A stretch of 64,000 bases of DNA. It comes from Botryllus schlosseri (Eukaryota). The position numbers and the translations under genes were made by a program. The stretch spans positions 19,842,001 through 19,906,000 of the forward strand of contig CM119371.1 of NCBI GenBank assembly GCA_051294905.1. The letters run 5' to 3'. Positions 33,518 through 43,439 of this stretch are shown one piece after another (position 1 is the first letter of the stretch; the number at the start of each line of letters is the position of its first letter). The notes beneath the pieces are model-generated. The model was given only the letters and a program-made list of their open reading frames with translations. It searched no databases and was not told where the DNA came from.

Positions 33518-33668
33518 TGTAGCGACTCTACAAGGCGCGCTCGTCGATCGTGTGATTATTTGATTGCCAATTTGTGAATGTTTGCGCGTCCCTCTTCAAT
33601 GCATGCATGTTGATGCGTTTACTCGCCAGTTACTAACTTCGCTCGCAATAAACGGAGCTCTCGCTTCA
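33518..33668 (+). repeat. Outer Gypsy 5' LTR
   Basis: TGTAGCGAC...CGCTTCA, contains AATAAA, identical to 43289-43439. Confidence 0.96.
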
Positions 33669-33669
33669 T

Positions 33670-33683
33670 TGGTGACCCCGACG
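33670..33683 (+). promoter_or_regulatory. tRNA-Trp primer-binding site
   Basis: TGGTGACCCCGACG, complement of the tRNA-Trp 3' end, 1 nt after the LTR. Confidence 0.9.
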
Positions 33684-34135
33684 AGCAGGAACGTATTCCT
33701 GCACTACGAGCATGGATCAGCAGGCAGGCAAGCAGAATGCGGTAGCTGTTAAGCTTCCAACCTTTTGGGCAGAGGAGCCACGAGTTTGGTTTCGACAGGC
33801 GGAAGCACAGTTCGCCTTGAAAGGAGTAACTGCAGATGTAACCGAATTCTATTACGTAGTTTCAGCTTTAGATCAGACCACAGCAAAACGACTGATAGAA
33901 CTCTTGGACAATCCTCCACTGGCAGAGAAGTATAACACGATCAAAAGCAAGTTATTACAGTCTTTTGCCTTGTCTCCACAAGAGCGAGCTGCACGTCTGT
34001 TAAATATGTCACCTCTTGGCGACAGAAAACCGACAGAGATGATGGACGAAATGCTCGCACTGCTAGGAGATCATCACCCCTGCTTCCTTTTCAAACACTT
34101 ATTCTTACAGCAAATGCAGGAAAACATACGGATAG

Positions 34136-37100
34136 TGTCGTAAACTGACTATTGCGTTGAATAACTAACTGAAGCTTTATTAAAGCAAAGGTAACCAATG
34201 TGGCTTTAAGCAACATAGAACACTACTGACAGCAGAACAGAAGAGAATAGAATGACACGGTAACGATAAGGCGACACTGTACTGTACAACGTAACTAATC
34301 AGATGAAAGTAATTATTGCCTAATTGCGGATCACCACATTCTACCCCCCTTGCATTTTGTAAATTCACATATAAAAATGACAAAAGAATATCAATGACTA
34401 ACAAAATGACCATACCGATCCGGCTGGCGCCTAACTCTAGTTGAACGCCGAAGCTCGACGTCTAGATTTCTACTCGAATCATCTGGTACATCCTCTGGAT
34501 GGTTAGATTCTTGAGGCTCTTCATCAGATGACTTCAACTCAACGTTAGAAACTTCGCGACTTGGCTCGTGGCCATCGATATCAACAGGACAAGGTTCAGC
34601 TTGTTTCGTTTCAGGATTAGTCGACGGTGTTTCTTCTCCAGTAGGAAAACGGGCCAAATCATTGAGTGAGACGTTGGACTCACGGCCGTTAGGAAAACGA
34701 ACACGTGCGTAAGTTTGGTTGGCTTCAAGAAGTTCGACCTCAGAACATAGTTCGTCGCCCTTGTTTCTGACGAATTTGCGTAAGAAAACTGGCCCCGGTG
34801 TCAATAGCCAGGATGGCACGCTATTCCCCACCATACTTTTTCTTGGGAAGGAAAAGAATCGGTCATGCGGTGTTGAATTAGTTGACGTGCAAAGTAGCGA
34901 TCGAACTGAATGTAACGCATGAGGAAGGGCGTCAGCCCAACATGATTCTGAGACTCCCGTTGATTTCAAAATGAGTTTGATAGTTCGCCATAATGTTTGA
35001 TTAAGGCGTTCGCACTGCGAATTTCCTGTTGGGTGGTAAGGCGTAGTGAAGCTAGTTGCAACCCCGCAAGAATGTAAATAATCCTTGACTTCCTTGGACA
35101 CGAAAGCGGTGCCTCGGTCACTGTGAACGTATCCCGGAAGTCCAAAAACAGCGAATAGTGTCGACAAACACGAAACGACGGTTAGCGCGGAAGTGTTGCG
35201 ACATGGAAAGGCGAACGGAAAACGACTATATTCGTCTATGACAACGAACATGAAAGGGGATTTGTTAGATTTCAAAGGCCCTTTGAAGTCTACGTTGATT
35301 CTTTCCCAAGGTTTCGTTGCTTTCACAAGCACTTGCGGATTGCATTTGTAAAAATTTGGTTTGATTTGAGCACAAATGCGGCAACGAGCGCAGGTCTCAC
35401 GGACGTCATTTAGGGAGAACGAGAGATTTTTCGAACGAACGAAATGATGCAGCCTTGTGACTCCTGGATGACCCAGAGTGTCGTGTATGCGATTTAGATT
35501 AGAACCTAAACTCACAGGGTGAAATCGATGCGCAATACGAAGATGTGGTCCGCGAAAACATATCAGCCGCAACATTCAGTGCCCCCGGTTTGTGTACGAT
35601 ATCATACGAAAGTTGACCAAGTTCGACACGCCACAGCTGGATTTTTGTATTTTTGATTTTACCTTTAGATTTGCCGTCAAACATGAACGCGACAGATCTC
35701 TGGTCAGTAACAAGAGTGAAATGTCTGCCATGTAAAAAATGAGCCCATTTACGAACTGCCGCGATAATTGAGGACGCTTCTTTCTCAACAGAGGAGTAGC
35801 GTATTTCACTTGGCGATAGTGCTTTTGACATGAACGCGACCGGTCGACCGTTTTGACTAAGGATAGCTGCAATGGCTGCATTAGAAGCATCACACTCTAT
35901 TGTGAACGGACTTGTCTCGTCGATCCTACCAAGAGACGCGTCAACTAACTCGCGTTTTAAATCGTTAAAGGCGATAGATGCATTTTCGGAAAGCGGAAAT
36001 TTTTCGACTGAACACAAAGGACGGATTTTGTCGGAGAAGTTTGGCAACCATTTGGCATAGTAGGCAAACATGCCACACACTCGTTTTAGTTCTGGGTTGT
36101 TGCGTGGCGGCAATAAATCGATTAGCGGCTTTAGTCTTTCTGGGTCCGGTTTGATCACGCCATGCGACACGCGATAACCGAGCAAGTCTAATTCCGTAGA
36201 ACGGATGATCGACTTCGAATGATTGAAAGTGAGGCTGTATTGCTGAGCAGCATTGAGAAACGCGTCGAGATTCCGATCGTGGTCGTCCTTATCCATACCG
36301 CAAACAGTAATATTATCCAGATAAGCGAAGGTGCCGGTGAGCTTGTTGTCTTTTATGACGTTGTCTATTATTCTTTGAAATGCCGAAACTCCGTTGGTGA
36401 CTCCAAATGGCAATCGACGGTATTGGTAAAGATTTCCAGCGGCTTCGAATGCCGTATACGGGCGATCATCAGGTGATAGTGCCACTTGATAATACGCGGA
36501 CTTCAGATCTAACGTACTGAAAACTTTGAAACGGGCGATGTTGTTGACTTGGTCATCGATCCTTGGTAAAGGATAGGCGTCTAGTAAGGTATACCTGTTG
36601 ACCGTCTGAGAGAAGTCGATGACCATGCGCTTCTTGTGTCGACCGTCATTTACAACAAGAACCTGTGCTCGCCAAGGCGATGAGGACGGCTCGATGATTC
36701 CTTCCTTCTCGAGTTTCGCAACTTCCGCTTAATGAAATGTAGATCGGCTTCGCTGTATCTTCTGGATTTAGTGGCAATCGGTTTACAATTCGGTGTCATA
36801 AACTTGAAAATTTGCGGTGCTTCGACACACGCTTGAGCAACTCCGCATACACTGTACTTCTGATCTCGAGGGAGTTCCAAGGTATCTCTATCTCCGCCCA
36901 TATTGAAAATGACTCGTTTATGCAAGTTCATGAAATCGAGACCAAGCACCACATCAGCGCATAAATCTTCCATTCCTTTAAGAGGGAATTCCGTATATTT
37001 CGTTTCGTTTACAAGAATGTCCGGTCTCTAGAGTTCTTCAATCTTGCAAGAATGGGATTTGGAAGCAAATGAAACCGTAGAGGAGTACGGAGTGGATTTC

Positions 37101-38281
37101 AGGTCAATTTCGTTGGCGTATCCAGTGCTTATGAAGCTTTCCGCGGAACCGGAGTCGATTAAAGCAAATGTTATGTGGCTGCCGATCTTAACCACGATTC
37201 TTGCTTTTATGAGACATTTGGGTACTCCGATGGCGCTGAAGTATGATATCATTGCAGTTACTGTTCTCCTGTTGTCGGTGGCCTTTCTCATGCAAACCAT
37301 TTCATAATGACCTAGGACTCCACAATAGCCACACTCGCTCCGTTTCGCTGGACATTTATATCGGGAGTGGAATGTCTGACCGCAAAAAAAGCACTTCCGA
37401 TCAGGTTTGATTGTTTTGCTCATTGCGTTGAGTCGACTGTGAGTTTCTGCGGATGATAGTTCGACTTCAGGATTCAAAGATTTTTTTAGCGGTTCGACGC
37501 CGACAGATGAACATGGAGTGCTGCAATAGATACTAGAGCTTCGCTGGGCGAATTCTAATGAGCGGGCTTTTGAGATCGCCATTTCGAGGGTTACAGCCCC
37601 GTCACTTTCTAATAACCTCTGTCTGATAACGTTTGATCGGAGACCAGTAACGAAAGCGTCGCGGATGGACTCCTTGCGATGATCTTCCGCCGAGAGAGTC
37701 TTGAATGTGTAATCCTTCGCTAGATCTGCCAAGGCGCGGGAAAATTCCTCGATCGTCTCTTCGGGCTTCTGAATACGGGTTACTAGCATGTGGCGGACGA
37801 AGATTTCGTTCTTTTGCTTGATATAAATTTTTTCGAGAAGTTCTATTGCGGTATCGTAAGTCGAACTTTCTTCAAAATAGGAATAGACAGACGACGACAC
37901 GAAATTCGTTAAGATCTTCAGCTTGTCGATCTGTGTATCTTGATCAAATGATGAAAGAAAATTATCGAAGGTCTTCTTCCAGTGCTTATACTGTTTTTCA
38001 GCGGAGGCGGAGTCCGGACTGATATCGAGCTTGTCTGGTTTCAGAATCCTTTCTGCCATAATTCTATGTTGCTTAAATTGTCGTAAACTGACTATTGCGT
38101 TGAATAACTAACTGAAGCTTTATTAAAGCAAAGGTAACCAATGTGGCTTTAAGCAACATAGAACACAACTGACAGCAGAACAGAAGAGAATAGAATGACA
38201 CGGTAACGATAAGGCGACACTGTACTGTACAACGTAACTAATCAGATGAAAGTAATTATTGCCTAATTGCGGATCACCACA
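34136..38281 (-). mobile_element. Nested Ty3/Gypsy LTR retrotransposon (inner element, 4146 bp)
   Basis: 203-bp LTRs (34136-34338, 38079-38281) with one mismatch, GATAG TSD, PPT AAGGGGGGTAGAA next to the 3' LTR. Confidence 0.96.
34391..38059 (-). pseudogene. gag-pol: Inner Gypsy gag-pol (probably one ORF originally), three lesions
   Basis: Two Cys/His knuckles, LIDSGS protease, YLDN RT, CDAS/TDQR RNase H, HHCC + VDFKGP/HSDRG/SQCER integrase; in-frame TAG 37028-37030, frameshifts near 36730 and 35500-35570. Confidence 0.93.
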
Positions 38282-38500
38282 GATAGTGCTGGCAAAAGAG
38301 GATCTAGATAACCCCCGAGATTTGGCTCCGCGGGCTGATCAAATGTGGCTATCGAGATCCAGCGATTACAGAATTAGTAAATTGAGTAAGAACAAACCGA
38401 CCAGTCCTAATACGATGGAAACGGTTTCAAACTTCTGCTTCTACCATCGGCGATTTGGCAAGAAGGCACGACAATGTTGCCCTCCCTGTGCTTGGCAGCA

Positions 38501-41500
38501 GGAAAACGACAAAGTCGGTTGTCCGCAGTAAACGGGGCAACCGGCAACAAATTATTTTACCTGCAAGACCTGAGGTCCAACTTCCTTTTTCTTGTCGATA
38601 CCGGGGCGGAAGTAAGCGTATTCCCACCCACCAGGCTCGAACGGAGACACAAAACCTCTGGTCCGCTGCTTACGGCCGCGAACGGAAGCATCATACGTAC
38701 TTACGGAACCAAGCGTCTTCCTTTGGTTTTCCCGTCAGGCAAATATGGTTGGGAATTTACCTTGGCCGACGTGTCCCAGCCGTTGCTGGGAGCAGATTTC
38801 CTTAGGGCGCAAGATTTGCTGGTTGATGTCAAACACCATCGCCTTATTCATTTGCATTCCCTAACCAGCGTTCCTCTCGGTATTAGTGAACATGTTTCGC
38901 TTGGTCTTAATTCTGTCAGCACGGGAAGGTCTTGCTACGCGCAAATCTTAGCCGAATTTCCCGAGATTATTACCCCGCATTTTACGCATGTACAACCCAA
39001 GCACAAGGTGGAGCATCTCATCTCAACTACCGGACAGCCTATTCATTCTCGTGTAAGACGATTGGCACCTGATAAACTCGCCATCGCGCAAACTGAGTTC
39101 AATAAAATGCTAGAGTTGGGAATCATCCGCCGTTCTTCGAGCCAATGGTCTTCGCCTTTGCACATGGTGCCCAAGGGTTCCGGAGGGTGGCGGCCTTGTG
39201 GAGATTACAGGCGTCTTAATACCGCCACGCAGCCAGACCGTTACCCCATCCCACATCTTCAAGACTTCACCGCGCGTCTCGCGGGATCAAATGTCTTTTC
39301 TAAAATCGACTTGGTGCGAGGCTACCATCAGGTTCCCGTGGCACCTGATGACATTCCGAAAACGGCTATTACCACACCATTCGGATTGTTCGAATTCCTA
39401 CGCATGCCATTCGGGCTTAAAAACGCAGCGCAGACATTTCAGCGAATGATGGACATGGTTTGCCAGTCACTTGATTTTGTCTTTGTCTACCTCGACGATA
39501 TCTTGGTAGCGAGCGAATCGCTTTCGCAACACAAACGACATCTTCACGAACTTTTCGGAAGGCTATCCAAGCACGGACTGGTCATAAACATTGATAAATG
39601 CCAGTTCGGAAAACCCGTCATAGATTTCCTCGGCCACCGGGTCGATAATCACGGTGCTAAACGACTACCCGGAAAGGTAGACGCAATTTTGAAATTCCCC
39701 CGGCCCACAACAGTGAAAGGCCTTCAGAAATTTACGGGGGTGATCAATTTTTATCATCGATTCATACCCGAGGCAGCGAAAATCATGATGCCTCTCTATG
39801 GTGCTCTTTCCGGAAATCCAGAAACGCTACTTTGGACAACTGAGATGGACACTGCAATGGCAAAAGCAAAAGAAGCTCTAGCCAGCTCCACACTTCTGCA
39901 TCATCCTTTACCAGATGCAAAGCCTGCTTTGACGGTCGATGCCTCGCAATACGCAGTTGGGGCAGTTTTGGAGCAATTCATAGACCAACGCTGCTGGAGG
40001 CCATTAGCGTTCTTCAGTAAACACCTCCGACCACCGGAGCTCAAGTACAGTGCTTTTGATCGGGAATTGTTGGCTCTGCACCTTGCCATTCGACATTTCC
40101 GGTATTTTCTTGAGGGCCGCAACTTTACAGCCTTTACTGACCACAAGCCACTGACGTTCGCATTTGCGAAGATATCAGAGCCTTGGTCGGCGCGTCAGCA
40201 ACGTCACCTGTCGGCAATCTCTGAGTTTACCACAGATATTCAGCACATTGATGGGAAAAACAATCGTGTAGCTGACGCTCTTTCGCGAATTGCAATTTCT
40301 AATGTACAGAACCCGTTACTCGACTTAGATTATGAGGCAATGGCGAAAGCCCAGCTTGACCCGGAGGTACAAGCATATCGTACGGCAATATCAAATCTAC
40401 GCATCGAAAACGTTCCGCTTGGAACGGCCGGCCTTACCTTACTTTGCGACACTTCTAGAGGTACGCCACACCCAGTAGTCCCTCGCTCTTGGCGAAGGAA
40501 AGTCTTTGAAGTTGTACACGGACTCTCGCATCCTTCGATCAGAACAACACGAAAACTGGTGGCATCAAAATTTGTATGGCATGGGTTGAAGAAAGAGGCC
40601 GGATTATGGGCAAAACAATGTGTTCCGTGTACACGCGCTAAAGTACACACACACATCCGGGCACCGCTAGCGGATTATCCACCTATAACTTCTCGTTTTT
40701 AGTCGGTAAACATTGACATCGTGGGACCATTGCCAATGTCACAAGGTAAAACGTACCTGCTGACAGTAGTAGATCGTCTCACTCGCTGGCCGGAGGCGAT
40801 ACCAATGGAGGACTCGACGACATTAACGTGCGCTAGGGCATTCATCGCCAACTGGGTGGCGCGCTTCGGTATTCCAGCACACATTTCCTCCGATCGAGGA
40901 CCGCAATTTACTTCGCATTTATGGGCCCAACTCAATCAGCTACTAGGCGTGATCCTACACAGAACGACTAGTTTTCACCCGCAAGCCAATGGCCTCGTTG
41001 AACGCTTCCATCGACATTTGAAAAGTTCCCTTATGGCAAGACTCACTAGTCCAAACTGGCTGGATGAGCTACCATGGGTTCTTTTAGGCATCCGCACAAC
41101 ACCCAAAGAGGTATTGGACGCCTCTTCGGCCGAAATTGTGTACGGTGCTCCATTGACGGTTCCCGCGATTTTGTTTCTTTTTCAGGAGAAAGCGCACGTC
41201 GGGATTTGCCAACGTTACAGGAAAAGATTCGCAATCTCCTTCCACGTCCGATGTCACGACCAGGGCTTTGGAGCCGGAGCCCGGAGCCGGAGCCCCGGAG
41301 CCGTGCATTTTTACCGGAGGTGGAGCCGGAGCTCTATATAAAATTCAGCCGGAGCCGGAGCCGGAGCTGGAGCCAGTTATTTGAGGGGTAGCTCCGGCTC
41401 CGACGTATTTCATAAGATGCTATTATATATGCAACAACCATATCTGCTGAGTTCACCGAATTCAACAGCAGGCCTTCGCGATATTAAGAATCTTTTCCTC

Positions 41501-43262
41501 TTTGGCGCTACATTTTCCGACTAACCATGTTCCTGGGGGTTTGACAGCAGAGCAGTCGTATGTTCAATGTTCCATTTTCATACATGAGTGCTGAACCTCG
41601 GTATGCGCCATATGCCTGTGAATATTGTGGGTATTCGGCATACCCGCAATTTCATCATCGGCACAACCTTGTTAGCCAATTGTATACGGTTCGAAAATAA
41701 TGATCACTATGTATTACGCGAAATAGGAGAGATGTTAAAAACGTGATTTCGTTGCACATGCCGATATGACGAGCACGAGCCGAGAAATTCCGTCTCATCA
41801 TTGCTATGAATCGGATAAGCAAATACTCGTTTTTTCGTGATAGTTCTTTAGTCGGGCCGCGAAAGTGGACAGTGTTATTGCGAGTATGCAATTATGCATG
41901 CTAATTGCAATTCATTACTGCGCATCATTGTCATCTCCAGTAAGGATTTTCGAGCTTAAATAGGAGATGGCAGAAGAGTAGGCCAAAACCCCATAGTATT
42001 CTATGTTGGAGACAAACTACTGATTTGATACGCGATTTCCAATTTGTAATCATCTGTTTCGTAAACTTGTAAATGTGCAATGTGCATACGGCATAGTTTT
42101 ATTCGTTATGGGCATGGTGCAATGTGCACGGCACAGTGTTTATTTCGATTCATTTCAACGGGAAAATATTATTCCGATAAACTTGATCGACACCGGATGG
42201 ACTGGTAACGAGTGCACCAATATCGAACGTCAAACCATTGACCATTTGGTACAAATCGAATTTCTATTGATCACGTCGTTATATCCGCCCATTTTGCCCT
42301 TACTACAGTTACAGGTGTGAGTTGAATAATAATCGCACATTTAAAGATTGAACTAAGCTGTATGGTAATGGTAATCGCCTAATGGTAATGAGTACAGTGC
42401 CAGTGTTAAAACGCCGCATCAGAATTGTAATGCTGTGGCACGGAGTAAAGTGCTTTTTTTAGTTTATTGTAACATACGACGATTTACTAAGATGTGACTG
42501 GACCCTGGATCTGCCAATGCGTCGAAACTGATATTTTAGTCCAGTCATCAATAACATCCCAAGTGCCGCGGCTAGACTAATGATATTTTTGGTTGGCCTA
42601 GCGAGTTCACAATCTGAGCAATTCAATTTCGATAATATAACAGAATTTCGATAGTATAATGTGAAATTGGCTCGCGGGCTACTCGAAGCCTTCTCGCGGG
42701 CCACATATGGCCCGCAAGCCGCGGGTTGCTCACCCCTGATACAGACAGACACCTTCAATAGTTTTCAGAGCCGGAGCCGGAGCTGGAGCCGGAGCAGTGG
42801 TAATATTGCTGCTCCGGAGCTGGAGCCGGAGCTGATGTATGATAGAAGAAAGCTCCGGAGTCGGAGCTGGAGCAATGCAAATTTACGGCTGCTCCGAAGC
42901 CCTGGTCACGACACGGCACGTCAAAAACCGCAGTTCCCGGAAGTTTGAAAGAATGCACATACGTGTTCATTCGAAAGGATGCACACCGACCACCGTCGAC
43001 CAAACCTTACGACGGACCGTACAAGGTTCTGAAGAAATCGACGAAATCATTTACGCTATCCATGGGCGGCAGAACAGAAGTGGTGTCCGTCGATCGTCTA
43101 AAGCCGGCGTATATGGATCTTAACGAACCAGTGGAAGTAGCACAACCTGCAAGACGGGGCAGACCACCGCGGCAACCAAGTGAGATCGAGCAACCGCGCG
43201 ATCTTCAAAATGCAAGAAGATCGAAACGCAACAGGCATCCTCCATCTCGCTACGGTTCCTGA
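38501..43262 (+). pseudogene. pol: Outer Gypsy pol (PR-RT-RNase H-IN), disrupted
   Basis: LVDTGA, YLDD, DAS/TDHKPL, HHCC, SDRGPQF, NGLVERFH, DGPY motifs; in-frame TAG at 40700-40702, 1-nt frameshift near 41165, hAT insertion 41261-42904. Confidence 0.93.
41261..42904. mobile_element. hAT-type non-autonomous element (GGAGCC subterminal repeats) in the outer Gypsy integrase
   Basis: TIR CAGGGCTTTGGAGC/GCTCCGAAGCCCTG; perfect 8-bp TSD GTCACGAC; integrase resumes afterwards. Confidence 0.93.
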
Positions 43263-43288
43263 GGATCCCCGCCGCTGGAGGGGGATGG

Positions 43289-43439
43289 TGTAGCGACTCT
43301 ACAAGGCGCGCTCGTCGATCGTGTGATTATTTGATTGCCAATTTGTGAATGTTTGCGCGTCCCTCTTCAATGCATGCATGTTGATGCGTTTACTCGCCAG
43401 TTACTAACTTCGCTCGCAATAAACGGAGCTCTCGCTTCA
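43289..43439 (+). repeat. Outer Gypsy 3' LTR
   Basis: Identical to the 5' LTR; preceded by PPT, followed by TSD ATAT. Confidence 0.96.

Follow-up and report, generated by a model that had tools for sequence, protein, structure and literature searches.

The window analysed here is a 64,000-nt stretch of the Botryllus schlosseri genome (GenBank assembly GCA_051294905.1, contig CM119371.1, positions 19,842,001 to 19,906,000 of the forward strand). On its minus strand lies a Ty3/Gypsy element bounded by long terminal repeats (LTRs), whose putative primer-binding site (PBS) is the perfect reverse complement of a segment inside its own LTR, which we call the arm. The pairing of PBS and arm recurs, with different sequences that co-vary, in about 31 families, and as judged from the comparison of these sequences it is under strong constraint. 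By analogy with the Tf1 element of Schizosaccharomyces pombe, we consider it probable that the clade to which the element belongs uses self-primed minus-strand reverse transcription. The parts of the element that bear on priming are as follows.

34136-38281, minus strand: LTR element, Ty3/Gypsy, 4,146 bp
38281-38079, minus strand: 5' LTR, 203 nt, TG...CA, direct repeat of 34136-34338
34338-34136, minus strand: 3' LTR, 203 nt, TG...CA, with its own copy of the arm at 34205-34220
38286-38282 and 34135-34131, minus strand: target-site duplication (TSD) CTATC, 5 bp, flanking the insertion
38163-38148 (LTR positions 119-134), minus strand: LTR arm TTCTATGTTGCTTAAA, putative self-primer, followed by GCC
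38077-38062, minus strand: putative PBS TTTAAGCAACATAGAA, 1 nt (A, 38078) past the LTR-terminal CA, without TGG
38124-38119, minus strand: AATAAA, candidate poly(A) signal, in the loop between the arms
38172-38167, minus strand: TCAGTT, initiator-like, 4 nt upstream of the arm

The two LTRs differ by one mismatch (38167 T vs 34224 A). Between the 5' LTR and gag there is a leader of only 19 nt, composed of the A at 38078, TTTAAGCAACATAGAA (38077-38062) and TT, after which comes the gag ATG (38059); it contains no TGG. The 16-mer and its reverse complement in the LTR (38163-38148) are separated by 70 nt, and the 3' end of the arm pairs with the end of the PBS that touches U5 (the unique 5' region of the LTR), which is the polarity required of a minus-strand primer. 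The first-pass annotation of this stretch, made from the letters alone, had described the short leader without TGG, the perfect complement, the loop and the polarity, and all of these coordinates are confirmed on the minus strand.

The PBS/arm pair is the sole inverted repeat of at least 9 nt between 37900 and 38600, and the RNA of 38163-38040 folds with this helix at -30.4 kcal/mol (z = -3.45). A search of the whole window with the 16-mer at up to 2 mismatches gives three matches (the two LTR arms and the PBS) where 0.10 are expected, and 0 of 100 shuffles reach three. The exact 16-mer has 71 matches in the genome and its reversed control has 0; most of the 71 are arm/PBS pairs on opposite strands 86 nt apart, or fall at known LTR positions. 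As a positional control, 20-nt intervals were each compared with their own upstream 120 nt: a perfect complement of at least 11 nt is present in 2 of 1700 intervals, and with the same geometry at the PBS position all 17 chosen family representatives reach 11-19 nt. The alternative that the complementarity is fortuitous or the LTR boundary misplaced has only the low regional G+C in its favour. It is rejected by the 16-mer counts, the positional control and the covariation presented below, and the TSD, the TG...CA termini and numerous independent insertions pin down the LTR boundary; we regard this alternative as extremely improbable. Three genomic copies of the 16-mer lie exactly 9,919 bp apart (G000:C14:17180717, 17190636 and 17200555), a spacing that points to a tandem repeat of about 9.9 kb with an LTR captured in it.

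The window family is young and numerous, with 41 LTR matches at 96-100% identity in the genome. Full-length gag matches number 12, four of which lie in open frames of 1230-1242 amino acids (aa). Both arms are unchanged in 12 of the 15 other copies that hold LTR, PBS and gag start. The remaining three carry five single changes, four leaving G.U and one C.A: L012 has two arm changes and L028 one arm and one PBS change, each leaving G.U, and L029 has one arm change that gives C.A. Copies of the same family are too similar for covariation testing. Another copy, L036 (1053-1390; G000:C11:5858552-5858889), is a perfect hairpin with a 134 bp stem formed by U3 (the unique 3' region of the LTR) and the arm, and a 70-nt loop; the order is U3 and arm, loop, PBS and reverse complement of U3, then pol. 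It has no TSD, and its junction occurs only once genome-wide. As an anecdote only, this hairpin may be the product expected if plus-strand strong-stop DNA were extended after its 3' PBS had folded back onto the arm of the same molecule.

Sister families in the same genome show the arrangement with other sequences. A gag search of the genome returns 119 matches, most of them 32-45% identical and many in open frames of 1200-1270 aa. The families with gag 32-41% identical have the PBS and the LTR segment in the same places with different, co-varying sequences, and in total the genome holds 12 families, the window family included, with distinct arm sequences of 12-16 nt. Unrelated sequences are seen, for example, in families B and C (loci L057-L066): the arm of family B is TTAGTTCATTTAA, then GCC, with TTAAATGAACTAA as its partner, and the arm of family C is ATTTAAGTTAGTAAAA, then GCC, with TTTTACTAACTTAAAT as its partner. 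The sister families are read from short stretches upstream of gag, and for most of them the LTR start is taken from flank divergence and TG ends. In 17 of 20 further stretches of this kind, the top inverted repeat is the PBS/LTR pair, with the LTR segment 22-65 nt upstream and the PBS 1 nt past the CA (2 nt in L081 and L086). The other three stretches come from families in which the pairing is otherwise seen: a 1-nt bulge interrupts it in L074, L077 is a chimera whose PBS is mutated, and in L079 mutation of the arm leaves 10 nt.

The arrangement is also found in other organisms. Relatives of the frame for reverse transcriptase (RT) and RNase H (RH) are 48-62% identical, and their named hosts are sea slug, sea anemone, coral, flukes, nematodes, spider, Ciona and ray. 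A profile search of metagenome contigs gives 80 loci with an RT-RH 45-66% identical to that of the window element. Of the 22 metagenome loci with detectable LTR pairs, 17 have at the LTR end a perfectly complementary stretch of 11-19 nt; of the other five, L088, L128 and L160 are decayed, and L137 and L147 have a misassigned LTR boundary. An inverted repeat of at least 11 nt lies in the expected zone in 26 of the 43 loci that include the 5' region, and in L123, L149, L138 and L158 the repeat is outside that zone or has one mismatch. An unbiased listing of perfect inverted repeats of at least 11 nt with loops of 15-95 nt, in 540,022 bases, contains 75 repeats. About 31 of them carry the signature of an arm followed by GCC or ACC, a CAA before the partner, and a gag ATG within 0-40 nt. 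The arrangement is shared by about 19 more families, found on contigs of other organisms, which brings the total to about 31. In one metagenome family (L090, 3630-3714), the complementarity is 19 nt long and the PBS abuts the gag start codon (…GAATCA then TGG), the leader being essentially the PBS alone.

The two arms covary. With the duplex numbered from the loop, the 20 family representatives have Watson-Crick pairs in 220/220 cells of positions 1-11; at position 12 a single G.U stands beside 19 Watson-Crick pairs, and past position 13-17 the pairing fades to noise. All four Watson-Crick types are present at position 7, and positions 1-12 have a G.U in 1/240 cells. The loop-side end of the duplex is constant (...AAA|GCC facing CAA|TTT...), with no inward extension ever, and the outer end is variable, at 12-16 nt, or 17 with one G.U included in family K. 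The PBS starts 1 nt past the LTR CA in 19 of the 20 representatives; the L081 family is offset by 2 nt. Of the 12 families of this genome, 10 have GCC after the arm, one has ACC and one has TAT. For alignment A3, which has 19 sequences and 16 pairs (L081 was dropped, being misaligned by MAFFT), 95.4% of the helix cells are paired vs 71.0 +/- 1.8 in shuffles, and 0 of 500 shuffles reach the observed value in any of five measures. Both sides change at 13 of the 16 pairs (67 cells), with slid controls at 31-51%. RNAalifold on the 19 leaders predicts the PBS/arm helix and no other. There are also near-identical LTRs that differ by one compensated pair, as in L095/L104 (T:A vs G:C), L147/L148 (G:C vs A:T) and families F/G (G:C vs C:G). 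The first-pass annotation had tied its proposal to covariation of the PBS with R (the terminal repeat of the RNA) across family members, and to related elements keeping the complementarity; both hold, the co-varying pairing recurring in about 31 families at deep divergence.

Directly after the arm, columns 21-23 of A3 read GCC in 14 of the 19 leaders, ACC in 4 and GCG in 1. Many families have a (U)AGGY nearby that can pair with GCCU(A), either in a local hairpin or near the LTR end. This pairing may be part of a cleavage-site structure.

In the mechanism that we propose for the clade, transcription would begin at or just before the LTR arm, and the first 12-19 nt of the RNA would fold back on the complementary PBS, 1 nt past U5. 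The RNA would then be cut at the conserved arm|GCC boundary, as RNase H does in Tf1, and the freed 3'-OH would be extended through the spacer A, U5 and R. The primer would be kept on the minus strand and copied in plus-strand strong-stop synthesis, and the PBS would be rewritten from the arm in each cycle, which would keep the two perfectly complementary. At the level of sequence, the position, the polarity, the invariant core of 11-12 bp and the lack of a tRNA-type site match the Tf1 scheme. The near-absence of G.U would fit a copying mechanism, as with tRNA primers, better than a helix kept only as RNA structure. In most families the PBS/arm helix would also keep the poly(A) signal hidden at the RNA 5' end.

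The helix could also be a leader structure only, for 5' poly(A) masking, packaging or dimerisation, with another, unrecognised primer in use. In 14 of the 20 representatives the arm includes an AATAAA or ATTAAA, and in most families of this genome the LTR has no other such signal. The partner is found only after the 5' LTR, so that only the 5' signal would be silenced, and the RNA runs described below have no start at the arm. A known helix of this kind is the HIV-1 5' poly(A) hairpin; the poly(A) signal is repeated in R, and the RNA helix can conceal its 5' copy. That hairpin is local and unrelated to priming, unlike the helix of this clade, where the partner strand is the PBS itself. We find a leader structure without a priming role rather unlikely, since the partner sits exactly where a primer must anneal, no alternative TGG PBS follows in any family, families A, B and C keep the pairing with no canonical poly(A) signal in their arms, and so few G.U cells are unusual for a purely structural RNA helix.

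Several points weigh against self-priming in this clade. The family representatives were picked after the repeats had been seen, and decayed or odd copies (L074, L077, L079, L088, L128, L138, L158 and L160) were omitted. The only group for which self-priming has been shown experimentally is characterised by a chromodomain and the clade has none, so the mechanism is carried over by analogy. In that group, the monophyletic Tf1/sushi sublineage of chromoviruses, self-priming is a common feature and requires a three-duplex 'pretzel', according to PMC10085805; unlike in Tf1, the two further duplexes of the pretzel are not found as a conserved feature by RNAalifold in the 19 leaders of the clade, whose loops align poorly. 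As for RNA, three raw runs and one contig run were mapped to the element, and no RNA 5' end at the arm is found in these sparse data, in which the bulk run has only 10 reads and the single-cell reads are mostly from one solo LTR. The only signal that resembles a 5' end is four single-cell reads at 38121, 27 nt downstream of the arm. Finally, the A/T-rich end of the arm could be a U3 poly(A) signal or a TATA-like box, with the start downstream and an RNA 5' end that does not include the arm.

The site of the RNA start separates two outcomes. If the start is at the arm, the poly(A) signal falls in the first 16 nt of the RNA; its 5' copy is held in the helix with the PBS and its 3' copy is unpaired. 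With a downstream start, the arm is in U3 and near the RNA 3' end only, and self-priming from the 5' end fails; the pairing would then bridge the two RNA ends as a long-range 5'-3' contact, with any primer coming by cleavage from the U3 copy at the 3' end. The four reads speak for a downstream start if 38121 is a 5' end, although they may mark a reverse-transcriptase stop. The ...TTAAAG or ...AATAAAAG of the arm resembles a TATA box about 27-32 nt upstream of 38121, and some retroviruses keep AAUAAA in U3. The loose end on the four reads is presumably the template-switch oligo of the library. In depth bins, the reads do not cross the LTR end. One sense-oriented solo LTR of the window family sits inside an expressed host transcript, with reads from the LTR ends into a single pair of flanks (54 + 48 in run X21 and 16 + 40 in run X22), and the four reads are probably from this solo LTR. 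A downstream start, R and the cleavage site would have to fit in the distance from the arm to the LTR end, which is 21-52 nt in most families; in family K only 21 nt remain, with little room for a start site and R. Moreover, in most families the arm holds the sole AATAAA, and we know of no system that primes from a 3' U3 segment. TATA-like motifs before the arm (TATAAAA starting at 31 nt in family E, at -29 in F and at -28 in H) lend weak support to an upstream start. The Tf2 RNA of wild-type S. pombe also starts downstream of the self-primer, and the upstream start is seen only upon nucleosome loss (PMC5341516); a downstream start seen in ordinary cells would therefore not settle the matter. 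We judge it unlikely that the start is downstream with the arm confined to U3.

The first-pass annotation had expected a start near 38163-38170, at the LTR segment that lies just after TCAGTT and before AATAAA, and had taken 38148 as the downstream limit. Both motifs are present, but TCAGTT is not conserved in the sister families and no RNA start is mapped there, and AATAAA lies inside the arm in most sister families; the only signal, the four ambiguous reads, is downstream of 38148. Its broader proposal of tRNA-independent self-priming is supported in part, by the anatomy, the constraint and the lack of a fitting tRNA-type PBS, window tRNA gene or Rfam family; the RNA runs give no start near 38163. 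Whole contigs of about 4 kb were considered as transcripts and rejected, as they resemble collapsed one-LTR assemblies, and poly(A)-tailed, transcript-like copies sought in the fetched loci gave nothing relevant.

A different possibility is that some host RNA anneals to the PBS, for example a tRNA half, a mitochondrial tRNA or a small RNA of another type, and that the LTR copy is incidental. The tRNA comparison covered the tRNA genes of the window and Rfam, and half-tRNA priming exists in Copia lineages (PMC6317226). The window has no tRNA genes and no Rfam match, and no clade member examined, from this genome or from the metagenomes, has a TGG-type PBS. The families have different PBS sequences, each matching its own LTR; their arms are 12-37% G+C, and most of the 71 genomic 16-mers are accounted for by the element itself as arm/PBS pairs or LTR positions. 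A host RNA as primer is very unlikely in our estimation.

A classical tRNA-type site is present next to the element and is a useful internal contrast. The element is inserted in another Ty3/Gypsy, which spans 33518-43439 on the plus strand and whose gag is split by the insertion.

33518-33668 and 43289-43439, plus strand: LTRs of the outer Gypsy, 151 nt, TSD ATAT; gag with DUF7041 (Pfam)
33670-33685, plus strand: outer PBS TGGTGACCCCGACGAG, TGG type, 1 nt past the LTR

The outer Gypsy and the Mag lineage Gypsy elements of mosquitoes, for which PMC3286476 gives tRNA-Leu/Ser priming, resemble the inner clade in the order gag, protease (PR), RT, RH and integrase (IN), in short LTRs and in a PBS 0-2 nt past the LTR. 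The difference lies in the PBS, which in these elements starts with TGG and matches the 3' end of a tRNA, and in the inner clade never does.

The inner clade is closer in its priming anatomy to Tf1 and Tf2 of S. pombe and to Tj1 of S. japonicus, where the PBS just past the 5' LTR also complements an LTR-internal segment with minus-strand polarity. Self-priming has been proposed for Tj1 (PMC4600332). Tf1 has a self-primer of 11 bases, with an RNase H cut between bases 11 and 12 (PMC7175516), comparable to the invariant core of 11-12 bp in the clade, and as in Tf1 no tRNA would be involved. Unlike the Tf1/sushi group, the clade has animal hosts and lacks the chromodomain and the PF03732-type gag, and its arms are 11-19 nt long, usually hold a poly(A) signal and are followed by a conserved GCC. 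Self-priming has also been predicted for plant chromoviruses of the Tcn1 clade and for Copia elements of the TAR lineage (PMC6317226), and there too the prediction comes from a PBS complementary to its own LTR and not to a tRNA. Those are different lineages in different hosts, and the evidence for the present clade, unlike theirs, includes an explicit covariation count across families and organisms. The Cigr-1 clade of Ciona intestinalis is a lead only, in that Ciona proteins are among the relatives. Cigr-1 is said to be about 4.2 kb long, with LTRs of about 245 nt. Its clade has been reported beyond tunicates, in molluscs (PMC6238403). We found nothing in print on the Cigr-1 PBS, and in the literature searched no report of self-priming in animal non-chromoviral Gypsy elements.

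If the clade is self-primed, tRNA-independent priming would be more widely distributed than was known, and the question would arise of convergence or ancestry: self-priming would have arisen more than once or would predate the chromovirus branch. Elements independent of tRNA should then escape the host small RNAs that target a tRNA-type PBS (PMC7472051). Annotation tools that seek a tRNA-type PBS would label the elements of this clade as having none. Two features are concrete and open to testing, namely the conserved boundary between arm and GCC and the presence of a poly(A) signal within the primer. More tentatively, and as a combination that we think possible but doubtful, self-priming may not be a chromovirus speciality but also the property of a chromodomain-less, multi-phylum animal clade of Ty3/Gypsy elements with a gag-pol of about 1,240 aa, a YxDN motif and a self-primer of 12-19 nt that holds a poly(A) signal, where one helix would both prime and hide the 5' signal and the PBS would be rewritten in each cycle.

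The coding part of the window element, with its polypurine tract, is as follows.

37028-38059, minus strand: gag (two CCHC knuckles) and start of protease (DSG), 343 aa, with an in-frame stop at the end
35499-36728, minus strand: RT and RNase H frame, RT motif YLDN; Pfam RVT_1, RT_RNaseH and RT_RNaseH_2
34391-35575, minus strand: integrase frame (H2C2 zinc finger, rve core); Pfam Integrase_H2C2 and rve, without chromodomain
34339-34351, minus strand: polypurine-like tract AAGGGGGGTAGAA, abutting the 3' LTR

This copy is defective: protease has the in-frame stop (37028-37030), and the frame changes twice by a single base, near 36.73 kb and near 35.51 kb. The frame changes were located against a long-frame copy at 97.85% identity; the first leads into the RT frame and the second into the integrase frame. 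The gag/protease stop is absent in other copies, where a single frame reads through.

The TG...CA LTRs, the short TSD and the order gag-PR-RT-RNase H-IN with the Pfam domains RT_RNaseH and Integrase_H2C2 are those of Ty3/Gypsy, and we classify the element in this group because the solved structures closest to the long-frame copy are Ty3 proteins, namely Ty3 Gag-Pol 7q5b (E 6.6e-62) and Ty3 RT 4ol8. On sequence similarity and domain content, it belongs to a large clade of chromodomain-less animal Ty3/Gypsy elements spread over several phyla, with members of about 4.1 kb, LTRs of about 150-300 nt and gag-pol in a single frame of about 1,240 aa. The absence of a chromodomain, already noted at first pass, is confirmed in the window copy, in the four intact polyproteins (0/4 at E <= 0.1) and in the closest full-length relatives (0/120 in precomputed Pfam lists). 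A PF03732-type gag is likewise found in 0/4 intact polyproteins and 0/120 of these relatives. Because it has no chromodomain, the clade falls outside the Tf1/sushi group as defined by domains. As a hint only, the database names of the relatives are 17.6, opus or K02A2.6, not Tf2. A chromodomain search of the genome gives 150 matches at E <= 1e-5, mostly in frames of 339-384 aa. The one copy examined, L167 (G000:C1:19603100-19609600), was rejected as a chromovirus: its chromodomain is terminal on an rve integrase, with an ATPase-like open reading frame adjacent. We take it to resemble a Maverick/Polinton-type element.

The RT catalytic motif of the window element (36308-36319, minus strand) is YLDN and not YxDD. 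In alignment A1, with 19 clade members, 15 have YxDN, three have YxDD or FxDD and one has YLHN. The second aspartate of the RT seems dispensable in the clade, because the clade includes young copies in long open frames. A similar motif, YVDN, is recorded for the Cer7-12 BEL elements (PMC554778).

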